A stretch of DNA of 64,000 nucleotides, from NCBI GenBank assembly GCA_963643165.1, contig CAVIJD010000008.1, positions 4,397 through 68,396 on the forward strand, given 5' to 3'. Below, piece by piece: positions 43,189 to 45,921 of the stretch (positions within the stretch are counted from its first letter, which is position 1; each line of letters starts with the position of its first letter). The notes under the pieces are model-generated. The model saw only the letters and a list, made by a program, of their open reading frames with translations. It did not search any database and was not told the DNA's origin. The DNA comes from a bacterium. Lineage in GTDB: Bacteria; Bacteroidota; Bacteroidia; Bacteroidales; WCHB1-69. The position numbers and the translations under genes are program-made.

Positions 43189-43308
43189 ATGAAGAATTAT
43201 TCAAAAGCAAAAATGATTGCAAAGAACCTCGCTACTGGCTCTTACGCTGCAGGTTGCCCTGAAAAAGGTCGTGGACTTGATTGCCTCAATTGCGAGCGTA
43301 CAAGGTAA
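43189..43308 (+). CDS. 39-aa Cys-containing peptide, candidate RiPP precursor
   Basis: Not in the ORF track. ATG 43189 to TAA 43306-43308 gives MKNYSKAKMIAKNLATGSYAAGCPEKGRGLDCLNCERTR. It is a Lys-rich leader-like half plus a core with 3 Cys, 84 nt upstream of an RRE-radical SAM/SPASM gene. Confidence 0.55.
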   Translation: MKNYSKAKMIAKNLATGSYAAGCPEKGRGLDCLNCERTR

Positions 43309-43324
43309 TCTTTGCAAGCAATTC

Positions 43325-43370
43325 GGAAGGAGTCTCCTTAAGAAATGGGAGATTCCTTCCTTTCCTTTTA
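43325..43370 (+). terminator. Hairpin plus T-rich tract between precursor and maturase genes (attenuator or partial terminator)
   Basis: 13-bp stem 43325-43337 GGAAGGAGTCTCC / 43348-43360 GGAGATTCCTTCC (one G-U pair) with a 10-nt loop, followed by TTTCCTTTTA. Confidence 0.55.
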
Positions 43371-43391
43371 AAACTCAAAACAAAAAAATAT

Positions 43392-44855
43392 ATGTTGATA
43401 AGACAAAGCAAGAACACATTCATAAGAGTGACAGAAAGGTATGGGTACATTACCAATCAGATGACCCGTCATGATAGGACATACGATGAAAATGGCGCTG
43501 ATTGGTTGAAAGAGATTAGCCGAGAACCGCAAACTATAGATGATATAATTGGTCGCCTTCAAAAAAATTATTGCGATGTAGATGCAGAAACGCTCAAGGC
43601 AGATTTTATGGAGTTTGCTGAGAGTTTGGCAAGAGATAAGTTCATTGTTATGGCTGAAACAGTTGAAGAACTTGATGCCAAGGACGATGATTTTACCTAC
43701 GCTATAGATAATCCTAAAACTCTGCGAGACGATTTTTATCAAGTAACGGAAGAGAAGGTGAGTGAGAACACCCAAGATTTCTTTTTGGAAGAAGTTCAAG
43801 GACGCCCATTGATTTCCAGTCTTCAATTCGAGTTGTCAAGCCGATGCAACGAACGGTGCATTCACTGCTATATTCCCAACGATAAGAAAAACCACGGCTT
43901 TGATATGCCTGCGGAAAAAGTCAAAAGCATACTCGACGAATTTGCGCAGATGGGAGGCATACATGTTACACTGTCGGGAGGAGAGGCATTTTTGCACAAG
44001 AATCTGATTGAGATAGTGAATTACTGCAGGGAAAAAGATCTCAAAATCAGTATCCTTTCAAATCTAATATCGCTAAAGGACGAACAAATCCCAGCTCTTA
44101 AAGCTGCCAATTTATCTTTGATTCAGGTCTCGCTTTACTCTATGGATCCAGAGATTCACGACTTTATCACCACGGTGAAAGGCTCGTGGCAAAAAACAAA
44201 AGATGCGATTGAAAAACTTGTTGCCGCAGATATCCCTGTACAAATTAGTTGCCCTATAATGAAGGCCAACAAAAAAGGTTATGACAAGGTGTTAGACTAT
44301 GCTAAATCATTGAAAATAAAGGCGCAGACCGACTATATAATGATGGCTCGTTCTGATCTTGACACAGAGAATCTTGCCAATCGTCTGTCGCTTGAGGAGA
44401 CGGAAGAGTTGCTGCGCACATTGATAGAACACGACATCAATTACAAGGAGGAAACTTTACAGCAACTACCTATATCTGATCAAATCAAGTTTGATCTTGA
44501 ACGTTTCAAAAAGCAACCTGTATGTGGTGTAGGATATGATAACTGTTGCATTACTACAAATGGCGATGTCTATCCGTGTGCAGGCTGGCAGGATTATGTG
44601 CTTGGCAATGTTTACAAGCAATCATTAAAGGAGATATGGGAAAACAGCGAACGAGTAAAAGAACTTCGTAAAATAACCCAGGCCTCATTCCCACAATGTC
44701 TTGAATGTGAGGCAAGGGACTATTGCGCTCGTTGTCTTGTCCGTAATTATAACGAAAGCGGAGGCGATATGTTTGCTGTGAACCATCATTTTTGCGATGT
44801 GGCATTTTTGAACAAAAAGATTGTTGAAGAATACAAAGAGAAAGGATTGTTATAA
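43392..44855 (+). CDS. Radical SAM/SPASM peptide-modifying enzyme with N-terminal PqqD-like RRE domain
   Basis: Start chosen at ATG 43392 (MLIRQSKNTF...). The N-terminal ~95 aa resemble a PqqD/RRE domain (ENGADWLKEISREPQTIDDIIGRLQKNYCDVDAETLKADFMEFAESLARDKFIV). Radical SAM cluster motif CNERCIHCY. C-terminal SPASM Cys pattern CGVGYDNCCITTNGDVYPCAGW ... CLECEARDYCARC. Confidence 0.8.
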   Translation: MLIRQSKNTFIRVTERYGYITNQMTRHDRTYDENGADWLKEISREPQTIDDIIGRLQKNYCDVDAETLKADFMEFAESLARDKFIVMAETVEELDAKDDDFTYAIDNPKTLRDDFYQVTEEKVSENTQDFFLEEVQGRPLISSLQFELSSRCNERCIHCYIPNDKKNHGFDMPAEKVKSILDEFAQMGGIHVTLSGGEAFLHKNLIEIVNYCREKDLKISILSNLISLKDEQIPALKAANLSLIQVSLYSMDPEIHDFITTVKGSWQKTKDAIEKLVAADIPVQISCPIMKANKKGYDKVLDYAKSLKIKAQTDYIMMARSDLDTENLANRLSLEETEELLRTLIEHDINYKEETLQQLPISDQIKFDLERFKKQPVCGVGYDNCCITTNGDVYPCAGWQDYVLGNVYKQSLKEIWENSERVKELRKITQASFPQCLECEARDYCARCLVRNYNESGGDMFAVNHHFCDVAFLNKKIVEEYKEKGLL

Positions 44856-45148
44856 TGGGTGCTGATGACATAAAGGACTTATTGGAACTGATTATCTGTG
44901 TGTTGGGCGTAGTTATACCACTGTTTTTTTTGATTAAAGAACGCTACGATAAGAAAAGACGCAAATTAGCTCAGCAGGTAATAGCGTATCATTGCTTGCA
45001 AGAGGAGGCCGTAGAATGGATAAAGGCACTTGCACCCACAGAAAAAAAAGTAAAAGAACAACTGCGTGAACGCGCCTCTAAGCATAAAGATAATGTAGCG
45101 CAAATATATCCTAAAATGGCAACAAAAGAGGCTTCAAAATATCTGTAA
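44855..45148 (+). CDS. Small single-TM protein of unknown function
   Basis: 97 aa with an N-terminal TM helix (LLELIICVLGVVIPLFFLI) and a charged helical tail. The start overlaps the rSAM stop (TAATG) and the stop overlaps the next start (TAATG). Confidence 0.5.
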   Translation: MGADDIKDLLELIICVLGVVIPLFFLIKERYDKKRRKLAQQVIAYHCLQEEAVEWIKALAPTEKKVKEQLRERASKHKDNVAQIYPKMATKEASKYL

Positions 45149-45921
45149 TGCTAATTGATTCGCATATTCATGTGGGGCAGTTCAGAGAACAATATTTTGC
45201 TCCGTCAACTATTCATCGGTTGGTAGAGCAATTAGGGATAGATTATTATGCAGTCTCTTCAACCACCATGTGCGAAGAAGACTATCCGAAAGTTATAGAA
45301 GAAATCCAACAACTTGTTGAAATAGATGGGGAAAAAGTGCTCCCAGTAATGTGGATTACACCGGCAGGATTGGAAGGAAACATCGCTTGGTTTTTGGAAT
45401 CGAGTATCAAATGGAGGTGTTTGAAAGTTCATCCGCTCCTTCATCCTAATGATTGGTGTCCGGAAGGGGGACAATTTCGAGATGTTGTGGATATAGCAAG
45501 AGCGTTACATCTGCCATTGCTTATACATACTGGAAATGATGTAATTTGTCATTGTGGCAAGTATGAACCGTTAGTCGCGAACAATCCAGATGTGGTTTTC
45601 ATACTTGCTCATGGCAGACCATTGACGCAGATTGTTCCTTTGCTTCGCAATTATTCTAATGCGTATGCAGATTCGGCTTTCATGCAAGTGGCAGATATGT
45701 CACAATTGATGCAATATGGACTATCTCACAAATTGTTATGGGGAACAGACATGTGCATTCCGAAGTATTATTATCCCCAAAAGGATATGCAAGTATACTA
45801 TCAAAGGAAATTGGACGCTTTTAAAAAAGTTAGTTCAACGGAACAATATGAACAAGTAACATTCCATAATGCAATGAAATTGTGGAGTCTTGAATGTATC
45901 TTAAAAGGCTTAACGAAATAA
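45148..45921 (+). CDS. Amidohydrolase-fold (TIM-barrel metal-dependent hydrolase) protein
   Basis: N-terminal MLIDSHIHVG (HxH metal motif), later HTGN and ILAHGRP and a WGTD motif, consistent with the Amidohydro_2/TatD-like superfamily. Translationally coupled to the upstream gene. Confidence 0.65.
   Translation: MLIDSHIHVGQFREQYFAPSTIHRLVEQLGIDYYAVSSTTMCEEDYPKVIEEIQQLVEIDGEKVLPVMWITPAGLEGNIAWFLESSIKWRCLKVHPLLHPNDWCPEGGQFRDVVDIARALHLPLLIHTGNDVICHCGKYEPLVANNPDVVFILAHGRPLTQIVPLLRNYSNAYADSAFMQVADMSQLMQYGLSHKLLWGTDMCIPKYYYPQKDMQVYYQRKLDAFKKVSSTEQYEQVTFHNAMKLWSLECILKGLTK

Follow-up and report, generated by a model that had tools for sequence, protein, structure and literature searches.

Among the described systems for ribosomally made, enzymatically modified peptides (RiPPs), those closest to the locus presented here include the SCIFF/ranthipeptide systems (CteA-CteB, Tte1186a-Tte1186; PapA-PapB freyrasin), which are minimal clusters of a short Cys peptide plus an RRE-radical SAM (rSAM)-SPASM enzyme with no dedicated exporter, and the sactipeptide maturases SkfB, AlbA and StsB. 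The mycofactocin and PQQ pathways (MftA/B/C/E; PqqA/D/E) combine a small peptide with a PqqD-type RRE, an rSAM-SPASM enzyme and a later hydrolase, which in mycofactocin is an amidohydrolase-type peptidase. The bottromycin follower-peptide amidohydrolase BotAH/PurAH provides a precedent for an amidohydrolase-superfamily enzyme cutting a modified RiPP precursor (PMC10885120). Few RiPPs are known from Bacteroidales, and a 2023 mining study states that their class I bacteriocin capacity is largely unknown (PMC10352776).

Here, we describe a three-gene cassette from gut Bacteroidales, in which a small, previously unannotated cysteine peptide gene is followed by an RRE-rSAM-SPASM enzyme and a predicted amidohydrolase. 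The predicted maturation logic is shared with described systems, whereas the peptide family is unnamed and its middle part differs even between near-identical strains. The chemistry, the role of the amidohydrolase and the biological function were not tested.

The cassette and its island

A sequence-only reading of the 64-kb stretch of DNA analyzed in this study (hereafter the window) had proposed a RiPP cluster consisting of a 39-aa Cys peptide, an rSAM enzyme with a PqqD-like RRE, a single-TM protein and an amidohydrolase-fold enzyme, located in an AT-rich block. All of the sequence features it described were found to be present, and its observation is thus confirmed. The block shows 37–42% GC compared to 52–60% in the flanks and comprises the following features:

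42431–42447, no strand assigned: left copy of an exact 17-nt direct repeat, GCCTTGGCTTTCACGGC, 6 nt after the rluD-like stop; candidate left border of the AT-rich island.
42669–42872, plus strand: relic of an ISAs1-type transposase N-terminal region with the frame broken upstream (Pfam DDE_Tnp_1_assoc, 33.9 bits against a cut-off of 32.3).
42903–43069, no strand assigned: inverton, with perfect 21-nt inverted repeats (42903–42923 and 43049–43069) flanking a 125-bp invertible segment (42924–43048).
43135–43163, plus strand: conserved upstream motif AAAGCCGAATCGCTGGAAAGGAGGTAGGC, 25–55 nt before the start codon; function unknown (promoter, operator or RNA element).
43189–43308, plus strand: precursor peptide gene, 39 aa, MKNYSKAKMIAKNLATGSYAAGCPEKGRGLDCLNCERTR; conserved N-terminal part 43189–43257 (through GSYAAGC), core and C-terminal motif 43258–43305, hypervariable stretch about 43260–43300.
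43325–43360, plus strand: 14-bp stem-loop followed by TTTCCTTTT, resembling a terminator or attenuator.
43392–44855, plus strand: RRE(PqqD)-rSAM-SPASM enzyme, 487 aa; predicted peptide maturase.
44855–45148, plus strand: 97-aa protein with an N-terminal TM helix; lineage-specific accessory of unknown function.
45148–45921, plus strand: metal-dependent amidohydrolase-superfamily enzyme with a predicted TIM barrel, 257 aa; conserved partner of the rSAM.
45894–46199, plus strand: 101-aa ORF overlapping the end of the amidohydrolase gene, without family match and seen only in the conspecific islands; probably not part of the system.
46234–46250, no strand assigned: right copy of the 17-nt direct repeat, abutting the stop of the 2-hydroxyacid dehydrogenase gene; candidate right border of the island.

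The peptide ORF ends 83 nt before the rSAM start codon, and the TAATG overlaps chaining the following genes are real (44853–44857 and 45146–45150). The hairpin between the peptide and rSAM genes was identified by folding (−28.3 kcal/mol, z = −4.65) and by a terminator scan, and an equivalent hairpin with a different sequence follows the peptide gene in 31 of 33 loci. The conserved upstream motif is present in 26 of 31 loci; only a 3-bp closing stem shows compensatory changes.

The invertible segment appears as the reverse complement in two conspecific MAG contigs (L042 and L043; L-numbers denote the individual loci or contigs compared) while the flanks stay collinear, and a third contig (L044) breaks inside it. 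In the window, a single Bacteroides-type −7 box, TAtcTTTG (43032–43039), points toward the peptide gene, which we infer to be the ON orientation. Promoter function was likewise inferred, activity was not measured, and a crude motif scan of the ORFs of the window found no recombinase, so that these observations do not decide whether the segment carries an active promoter served by a cognate invertase; the conserved motif downstream of the inverton could itself be a promoter.

A conserved triad with a hypervariable peptide

The sequence-only reading had named in advance the lack of conservation of the small ORF next to rSAM homologs as an outcome that would speak against it. Homologs of the peptide were found beside rSAM homologs in 29 of 31 assessable Bacteroidales loci and in L001–L008, as well as in Fibrobacter (42% rSAM identity) and in a marine contig (46%), which shows that the ORF is far more than a chance reading frame. 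Two loci (L022, L027) have the rSAM and the amidohydrolase but no such peptide. The 23 leader codons of the window and of locus L007 differ by eight synonymous and no non-synonymous changes, and the pooled leader pN/pS is 0.23 with a pS of about 0.68, indicating a translated gene under purifying selection.

At least 861 distinct peptide clusters exist at 90% identity, all named “hypothetical” and without a Pfam or NCBIfam model. The peptides share an invariant 23-aa N-terminal part (MKxYxKxxxxAKNxxxGSYAAGC), followed by P, a hypervariable stretch of 9–25 aa and CxxCER[TA]x. In the best 120 members, the Cys positions, GSYAAGC and CxxCE are fixed, the pattern C-x-x-C-[E/D] with Cys at −8 and an acidic residue (Glu, rarely Asp) at −4 being found in 119 of 120; 100 members have three Cys in total and the other 20 have four or five, while 119 of 120 cores are unique. 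The cassette is common in animal- and human-gut metagenomes, with one rSAM cluster listed in 325 blocks of the contig index and one identical peptide on 291 contigs, but current annotation does not see it.

Comparison of the window with the conspecific island L045 revealed that 31 of 37 differing columns fall within the 41 nt at 43260–43300, against six in the other 3881 nt (99.85% identity). Each conspecific allele is closer to alleles from other lineages than to the other conspecific allele.

The rSAM enzyme passes the Pfam cut-offs for PqqD (28.2 bits against 23.4, residues 32–85), Radical_SAM (94.3 bits) and SPASM (52.6 bits against 21.5). The CX3CX2C motif (C152/C156/C159 in CNERCIHCY) and the cysteines of the full SPASM domain for two auxiliary clusters (C378, C385, C386, C396, C436, C439, C445, C448 and C468) are invariant in 25 homologs. 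Failure of the N-terminal domain to model as an RRE had been the other computational outcome set out beforehand as counting against the proposal; in the AF2 model, the first 100 residues form four strands followed by three helices with a pLDDT of about 67–94 per 10-residue block (82 or more for residues 31–100), although the whole-protein model is poor (pLDDT 57.9). The nearest solved relatives are the peptide maturases SkfB, PqqE, YydG/EpeE, SuiB and CteB, and relatives at 36–46% identity sit in other RiPP-like clusters, next to NHLP-type or Cys-rich peptides. However, the enzyme reaches no named family’s NCBIfam cut-off, the best score being NirJ2 at 136.7 against 500.

The amidohydrolase follows the rSAM in 30 of 32 loci. 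It scores 26.2 bits on Amidohydro_2, just below the cut-off of 26.4, but models confidently as a TIM barrel (AF2 pLDDT 93.4), with a Foldseek probability of 1.00 to LigJ, 3irs, 3cjp, LigI, ACMSD and TatD (for LigJ, LigI, ACMSD and TatD, TM about 0.7 and 10–19% identity). Residues D4, H6, H8, K93, H95, H127, H155 and D201 are invariant, and the enzyme keeps all its metal ligands; the assignment of these residues to particular strands (HxH on strand 1, His on strands 5 and 6, Asp on strand 8) was inferred from the DSSP string and the TatD alignment. The amidohydrolase is much more divergent than the rSAM (mean pairwise identity 39% against 70%) and does not co-vary with the core (rho 0.05), leaving its relation to the peptide unclear. 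In contrast, the 97-aa TM protein (best 19-residue Kyte-Doolittle mean 2.95) occurs in only three lineages, namely the window, L030 (41% identity) and L040 (79%), and showed no Pfam, NCBIfam or PADLOC match.

Taken together, the reading of this locus as a RiPP cluster is supported, including its statement that the peptide is not SCIFF, with three corrections: the TM protein is an occasional accessory rather than a core component, the nearest structural relatives of the amidohydrolase are small-molecule hydratases, lactonases and decarboxylases plus TatD rather than known peptidases, so that the suggested leader removal is only one possibility, and the type of cross-link (sacti, ranthi or other) was not examined.

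Interpretation and rival explanations

We consider it fairly likely that this is a compact, horizontally spread RiPP-type cassette with three core genes. Our analysis directly demonstrates that the three genes travel together across Bacteroidales and that the same triad is found in Fibrobacter, that the peptide has an invariant 23-residue N-terminal part, a hypervariable middle and an invariant C-terminal CxxC-[E/D]-R motif, that the enzymes are intact and the leader codons under purifying selection, and that a strong hairpin separates the peptide gene from the enzyme genes. The remainder is inference, as no modification of the peptide has been observed and none was assayed here. In this view, the RRE would bind the conserved N-terminal part, and the rSAM/SPASM core would make one or more radical cross-links that use the invariant residues (Cys23, Cys-8, Cys-5, Glu-4, perhaps Tyr19) and tolerate any sequence in between. 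The most likely link would be a thioether of the Cys-X3-Glu/Asp kind at the C-terminus, possibly with a long-range link closing the variable stretch into a loop. The amidohydrolase would then process the modified peptide by cleavage or another hydrolytic or decarboxylating step, and the hairpin would keep peptide mRNA in excess over enzyme mRNA. With the operon behind the inferred invertible promoter, expression is probably phase-variable. As the core is replaced between otherwise identical conspecific islands, the variable loop would be the selected, specificity-determining part, which fits strain-level antagonism, signalling or another conflict role. However, no exporter, dedicated protease or immunity gene is part of the conserved core, which is unusual for a secreted Gram-negative peptide.

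Alternative explanations appear less likely. A peptide-derived cofactor or metal-binding module, in which the rSAM joins or modifies the conserved ends (GSYAAGCP and CxxCER), the amidohydrolase excises or matures the product and the middle is only a flexible linker, with the conserved ends as the functional part as in PQQ or mycofactocin, would be in line with the invariance of the ends across at least 861 clusters, the Gly/Ser/Asn-rich middle of varying length, the presence of Tyr and Glu, the PQQ building blocks, among the invariant residues, the PqqE and mycofactocin maturase matches among the better NCBIfam and PDB matches, the small-molecule relatives of the amidohydrolase and the missing exporter. 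Nevertheless, we regard it as unlikely, since a neutral linker should neither concentrate 31 of 37 differences in 41 nt nor show allele classes shared across lineages, and a cofactor pathway would not be expected on a sporadic, AT-rich, phase-variable island absent from most relatives; in addition, PqqE and MftC scores are far below their cut-offs. Similarly doubtful is an intracellular conflict system, such as anti-phage or anti-mobile-element defence, in which the modified peptide or the enzymes act inside the cell, in some loci together with a neighbouring Ser/Thr kinase. Hypervariability, a mobile AT-rich island, phase variation and the lack of an exporter are all typical of defence loci. 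A Ser/Thr kinase plus a “TLKRLWGY” protein lie within 1–5 kb in 12 loci, including a distant one; the kinases hit the PD-T4-6, mad6 and Stk2 models, but only over the generic kinase domain. An AAA_14/DUF4143 neighbour hits PDC-S01, one relative is fused to a PD-(D/E)XK nuclease, and HipA-like and AbiEii-like N-terminal sequences, recognized by eye and not scanned against any family library, occur among the neighbours. However, the PADLOC search matched the rSAM only at its generic core (pVip, residues 145–295) and returned no hit for the amidohydrolase, the TM protein or the 101-aa ORF, the neighbours in the window and in L001 are housekeeping genes, nothing was found in viral contigs or phage genomes, and the architecture (RRE, SPASM and a leader-bearing Cys peptide) is that of peptide maturation.

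A decaying, non-functional remnant of a mobile element is very unlikely. The island does contain a transposase relic and repeat debris, and the rSAM has an internal deletion in L040 and is truncated in L038, but all three core genes are intact in the window, its rSAM is 97% identical in protein to that of L007 but only 87% in DNA, the leader shows only synonymous change, and the rSAM translates uninterrupted at 99.2–99.8% identity in the conspecific contigs despite shorter gene calls in the databases. It is possible, although we consider it unlikely, that the cassette represents a new RiPP class, in which the rSAM joins invariant N- and C-terminal motifs (Tyr/Cys ... Cys-x-x-Cys-Glu) to display a hypervariable loop and an amidohydrolase-fold enzyme performs a new maturation step. 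The loop would be kept diverse within species by allele replacement, switched by phase variation, and would work as a strain-specific recognition, antagonism or anti-phage determinant in gut Bacteroidales, including the abundant human-gut lineage of L001–L006, which we presume but have not confirmed to be Prevotella/Segatella.

The replacement of only the core between near-identical strains, together with the upstream inverton, points to strong, frequency-dependent selection, so the cassette may help decide which strains coexist in the gut. Furthermore, a maturase that appears to recognize fixed ends and accept any loop, with hundreds of natural core variants, is attractive for peptide engineering.

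Comparison with described systems

With SCIFF/ranthipeptide systems, the cassette shares the minimal cluster without dedicated exporter, a leader of the MK.[YI].K... type ending in small residues just before the first Cys, and a fold match to CteB. The C-terminal C-x-x-C-[E/D] contains the Cys-X3-Glu/Asp spacing of PapB substrates, although this is a sequence pattern only. It differs in that no SCIFF or other NCBIfam precursor model matched any of 30 family members at E ≤ 1, in having three invariant Cys rather than six (in about 45 residues), in the hypervariable stretch, in a PapB-family score of 69.3 against a cut-off of 340, in the conserved amidohydrolase partner and in its host range of Bacteroidales and Fibrobacter rather than Clostridia.

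SkfB is the best-scoring solved structure by sequence (63 bits), and sactipeptide maturases share the N-terminal peptide-binding domain, rSAM and auxiliary cluster architecture as well as Cys-containing substrates. However, the enzyme does not belong to the AlbA, SkfB, StsB or ThnB families, with scores of 99.8 against 850 for AlbA, 78.4 against 300 for SkfB and 84.2 against 625 for StsB, the precursor is unrelated, and no bacteriocin transporter or immunity genes are present. The mycofactocin and PQQ pathways share the overall logic and an invariant Tyr and acidic residue in the peptide, but the equivalog cut-offs are not reached (PqqE 105.7 against 381; MftC 102.7 against 265), the hydrolase is an Amidohydro_2/TatD-like TIM barrel rather than a creatininase-family MftE, no PqqB/C or MftD/E/F genes are in the island, and the middle of the peptide is hypervariable and replaced between conspecific strains.

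The invariant HxH...K...H...H...D set of the amidohydrolase would allow a metal-dependent amide hydrolysis; a sequence relationship to BotAH/PurAH was neither tested nor seen, and the pathways are otherwise unrelated (YcaO-based against rSAM-based). Finally, the upstream region resembles Bacteroidales invertible promoters in its short perfect inverted repeats, its segment of about 125 bp carrying a TAnnTTTG −7 box and the occurrence of both orientations in natural conspecific genomes. The inverton is specific to this lineage of the cassette, whereas other loci have an XRE-type HTH gene or a kinase/“WGY” pair upstream instead.

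Sequence features of the locus and conservation of the small ORF

Every feature described in the sequence-only reading is present in the DNA, namely a short Cys-peptide ORF missed by the annotation, an RRE-radical SAM-SPASM enzyme, a small TM protein, an amidohydrolase-fold enzyme and an AT-rich block. The GC content is 37-42% from about 42750 to 46250, against 52-60% on both sides. The features of the window considered below are as follows:

42431-42447 and 46234-46250: exact 17-nt direct repeat
42669-42872: ISAs1-type transposase relic at the left end of the island
42903-42923 and 43049-43069: perfect 21-nt inverted repeats flanking 125 bp, 120 nt upstream of the peptide gene
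43032-43039: Bacteroides-type -7 box (TAtcTTTG)
43135-43163: conserved upstream motif, AAAGCCGAATCGCTnGAAAGGAnGTAGGC
43189-43308: 39-aa ORF, MKNYSKAKMIAKNLATGSYAAGCPEKGRGLDCLNCERTR, ending 83 nt before the ATG of the rSAM gene
43260-43300: replaced stretch of the peptide core
43325-43360: 14-bp stem-loop with a T-rich tail
43392-44855: 487-aa radical SAM (rSAM) protein
21163-21183, 42626-42646 and 46149-46169: three copies of a 21-mer, TCCTCGAAGAGGGCCAACATC
about 21900-27400 (minus strand): second lower-GC block of five ORFs

The rSAM protein passes the Pfam cut-offs for PqqD (28.2 bits against 23.4, residues 32-85), Radical_SAM (94.3 bits) and SPASM (52.6 bits). The two following genes overlap their predecessors by TAATG and encode a 97-aa protein with one strongly hydrophobic N-terminal segment and a 257-aa protein that scores 26.2 bits on Amidohydro_2, just below the 26.4-bit cut-off.

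In order to test whether the small ORF is a gene, we scanned one genome per species and found 32 loci with the same rSAM family (57-90% identity), nearly all in Bacteroidales MAGs. A lack of conservation beside rSAM homologues had been named in advance as an outcome that would speak against the cluster, but the opposite was observed. In 28 loci a complete homologous peptide gene lies beside the rSAM, in one more the contig starts inside it, one has no upstream DNA, and two (L022 and L027) lack it; the same association holds for the metagenome loci L001-L008, of which L001-L006 represent a common human-gut lineage, presumably Prevotella/Segatella. The two loci without a leader-type peptide have the rSAM and the amidohydrolase. 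In L022 (281-1123) a 280-aa multi-TM, Cys-rich protein abuts the rSAM, and its N-terminus (..TQGSSCNGCPQNN..) faintly recalls GSYAAGCP, whereas L027 (134-502) shows only the C-terminal part of a related protein, because the contig starts there. Some loci carry a second peptide gene, which is truncated after the leader in L001 (5538-5636) and complete, with a different core, in L030 (4851-4976).

A profile of 30 peptides recovered at least 861 protein clusters at 90% identity. None has a Pfam domain, the few that carry a name are called “hypothetical”, and no NCBIfam model matches any of the 30 family members. In the 120 best members the pattern is rigid. The N-terminal part is M-K-x-Y-x-K-x-x-x-x-A-K-N-[LA]-P-[TS]-G-S-Y-A-A-G-C, with 23 residues in 116 of 120, followed by Pro and then 9-25 residues rich in Gly, Ser and Asn. 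The end is C-x-x-C-E(115)/D(4)-R(106)-[T/A/S]-x, always four residues after the last Cys, and 119 of the 120 cores are unique. Translation is supported by the substitution pattern: the leader codons of the window and the metagenome locus L007 differ at 8 synonymous and 0 non-synonymous sites, and over all locus pairs the leader has pS about 0.68 and pN about 0.15. These results show that the small ORF is a gene. An ungapped pN/pS calculation for the rSAM was unreliable because of indels and was not used.

Conserved genes, predicted enzymes and family range

Next, we investigated which neighboring genes belong to the conserved core. The amidohydrolase follows the rSAM in 30 of 32 genome loci; one exception is cut by a contig end, and in the other the rSAM is truncated. 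The 97-aa TM gene has homologues only in L030 and L040, and other loci carry unrelated small genes at that position or between the peptide and the rSAM, so that the TM protein is an accessory. In four loci (L019, L020, L023, L038) a second rSAM-SPASM gene of 30-39% identity to the main one is inserted between the peptide and the main rSAM, and that of L023 has a weak PqqD hit. The rSAM is very conserved, with a mean pairwise identity of 70%, and is 97% identical in protein to L007 but only 87% in DNA. The amidohydrolase is much more divergent (mean identity 39%, and 42% in L007), and DNA homology to L007 breaks about 30 nt into the gene, suggesting that amidohydrolase alleles have been shuffled by recombination. 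Its divergence does not track core similarity (rho 0.05), and the idea that it is a core-specific immunity or processing partner has no support from this test. An exact look-up of the window's rSAM found no record, whereas that of the amidohydrolase found islands in conspecific MAGs.

The rSAM has CX3CX2C (C152, C156, C159) and nine invariant C-terminal cysteines in a SPASM arrangement. It reaches no named NCBIfam cut-off; the best are NirJ2 (136.7 bits against 500), AhbD, PqqE (105.7 against 381), MftC, AlbA, SkfB and PapB (69.3 against 340). NCBIfam likewise gave nothing for the TM protein or the amidohydrolase, and PADLOC matched only the generic rSAM core. By sequence, the closest solved structures are SkfB, PqqE and YydG/EpeE. 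The AF2 model of the whole protein is poor (pLDDT 57.9), and we used, with caution, only its N-terminal domain and the ranking of fold hits. Whether this domain models as an RRE had also been posed beforehand as a criterion, and its first 100 residues are confidently modelled as four strands followed by three helices, as expected for an RRE. With that caveat, the top fold hits are SuiB, anSME, SkfB, CteB and PqqE.

The amidohydrolase models at pLDDT 93.4 as a (beta/alpha)8 barrel. Foldseek finds LigJ, LigI, LigY, ACMSD, two uncharacterised amidohydrolases (3irs, 3cjp) and TatD, at TM about 0.7 and 10-19% identity. As D4, H6, H8, K93, H95, H127, H155 and D201 are invariant in 25 homologues, we predict an active metal enzyme, although these data do not reveal its substrate. 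Amidohydrolase-fold enzymes can cut RiPP precursors, for example PurAH/BotAH in bottromycin (PMC10885120), which is a precedent but not evidence.

A search of 1.84 billion cluster representatives found 740 proteins at E <= 1e-30, many of them full-length at 30-50% identity. A Fibrobacter cluster (L050; 42% rSAM identity) has the same peptide family (...AKNNPSGSFAAGCPSQYNNHIEWCIRCDYQGP) and an Amidohydro_2 gene, plus extra membrane proteins. A 55-aa ORF in this cluster (7167-7334) is a leftover of the C-terminus of a Bacteroidales-type rSAM (..YCAPCLVRNFNESGGDY..), which hints at past recombination between clusters. A marine contig (46%) has MKYKKPKLIAKNRPSGKFAAGCPTSTRSGNCKNCEVSS; here a UPF0489-like protein takes the place of the amidohydrolase, and the cluster lies beside an NHLP-type RiPP cluster. 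Other relatives at 36-46% sit in different RiPP-like clusters. One of them, an 879-aa protein (P0128; L056, 4001-6640), fuses the RRE-rSAM-SPASM enzyme to a PD-(D/E)XK nuclease domain (PDDEXK_4) and is preceded by a different Gly-rich Cys peptide. Conjugative plasmids of E. coli, Salmonella and Photobacterium carry a 38% identical, full-length homologue. On the one E. coli IncF plasmid examined (L058; NZ_LT985265.1, 5085-7437), the 478-aa rSAM (38.7% identical to the window's) lies directly after a Tn3-family transposase and resolvase, and is therefore probably transposon cargo; it is preceded by the small ORF MSYSKPTVLAKSSTYMAQCRPNSKPSGRPCNPPGPSGR and has no amidohydrolase. The YxKPxxxAK leader and this rSAM clade therefore go together over a wide range. 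No hits were found in viral contigs or phage genomes, which gives no support to a phage origin.

Expression signals, core replacement and the island

The stem-loop between the peptide and rSAM genes has a folding energy of -28.3 kcal/mol (z = -4.65), and an equivalent hairpin, with a different sequence each time, follows the peptide stop codon in 31 of 33 loci. In bacteriocin and lantibiotic operons, this arrangement gives an excess of precursor transcript. The 29-nt upstream motif is conserved in 26 of 31 loci, 25-55 nt before the peptide start codon. Only its 3-bp closing stem shows compensatory changes, and its geometry (GAAA-N17-CGTA) also resembles an ECF-sigma promoter. It may be a promoter, an operator or an RNA element, between which our data do not discriminate. 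An Rfam search found nothing in 42300-46400.

Upstream of the region covered by the sequence-only reading, the inverted repeats delimit an invertible segment. In two conspecific MAG contigs (L042, L043) the flanks are collinear with the window, but the 125 bp are the exact reverse complement, and a third contig breaks inside the segment. In the window's orientation the -7 box points at the peptide gene, from which we infer the ON state. A crude motif scan found no recombinase in the window. The inverton is not a general feature of the family, as it is present only in the window's lineage, with a weak 14-nt inverted repeat in L040. Other lineages have an XRE-type HTH gene upstream instead, or a Ser/Thr protein kinase (some with BspA-type LRRs) plus an unannotated protein of about 190 aa carrying “TLKRLWGY”. 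The latter pair lies within 1-5 kb of the cassette in 12 loci (L014-L016, L018-L020, L023, L030, L033, L036, L037 and L056), one of them a 46%-identity relative, and may be a regulatory or sensing module.

The same island sits at the same site (rluD-like gene / 2-hydroxyacid dehydrogenase) in several MAGs (contigs L042-L045), whose rSAM is 99.2-99.8% identical to the window's. Their peptide core, however, is PELNRGS[SG]S[ST]GKNSCISCERTK instead of PEKGRGLDCLNCERTR. Of the 37 alignment columns that differ between the window and L045, 31 lie in the 41 nt of 43260-43300 and only 6 in the other 3,881 nt, the islands being otherwise about 99.85% identical. The two alleles are 41% identical to each other, but 67-73% identical to cores attached to different leaders elsewhere. 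The variable stretch is therefore not drifting neutrally: either it is exchanged by recombination between the conserved flanks, or it is under strong diversifying selection, and our analysis does not explain which mechanism acts. A diversity-generating retroelement is unlikely, because the alleles differ by an 18-nt indel and by all kinds of substitution, and no reverse-transcriptase-sized ORF lies in the island.

The two copies of the 17-nt direct repeat are candidate borders of the island. The predicted uninterrupted rluD/dehydrogenase junction was not found in metagenomes, so that insertion with a 17-bp duplication is unproven and the mode of insertion was not identified. DNA homology with other islands covers only the stretch from about 43116 to the amidohydrolase, and the cassette has no conserved ends of its own. 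The third copy of the 21-mer lies next to the second lower-GC block, whose ORFs (479, 182, 476, 306 and 368 aa) were not examined and which is possibly another acquired island.

Interpretation and relation to known systems

The best-supported explanation is a RiPP-type cassette, and the sequence-only proposal of a RiPP cluster is supported. While the linkage of the genes, the peptide pattern and the selection on the leader codons come directly from the sequence comparisons, the individual steps are inferred: the RRE would bind the invariant N-terminal part, the rSAM/SPASM core would cross-link invariant residues whatever lies between them, and the amidohydrolase would perform a later step.

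A peptide-derived cofactor, an intracellular defence or conflict system and a decaying remnant were considered as alternatives. Core-specific replacement argues against the cofactor and remnant readings. The defence reading is still possible because of the neighbors, which include kinases matching PD-T4-6/Stk2 models and a match to PDC-S01.

Searches of the accessible literature for the motif, for rSAM + amidohydrolase RiPPs and for surveys of Bacteroidales and rumen RiPPs, including two such surveys and their supplements, found no description of this family, and the precursor has no model in Pfam or NCBIfam. We could not match to a described system the fixed pairing with an amidohydrolase, the absence of export or immunity genes, the within-species core replacement or the invertible promoter. 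The general type, an rSAM-SPASM RiPP, is known. The C-terminal C-x-x-C-[E/D] contains a Cys-X3-acid spacing like that of the substrates of PapB-type thioether enzymes, a comparison that was not tested here. A thioether is our first guess, but a Tyr-Glu carbon-carbon link of the PqqE kind is not excluded, and the cassette could represent a new class if the chemistry proves new.
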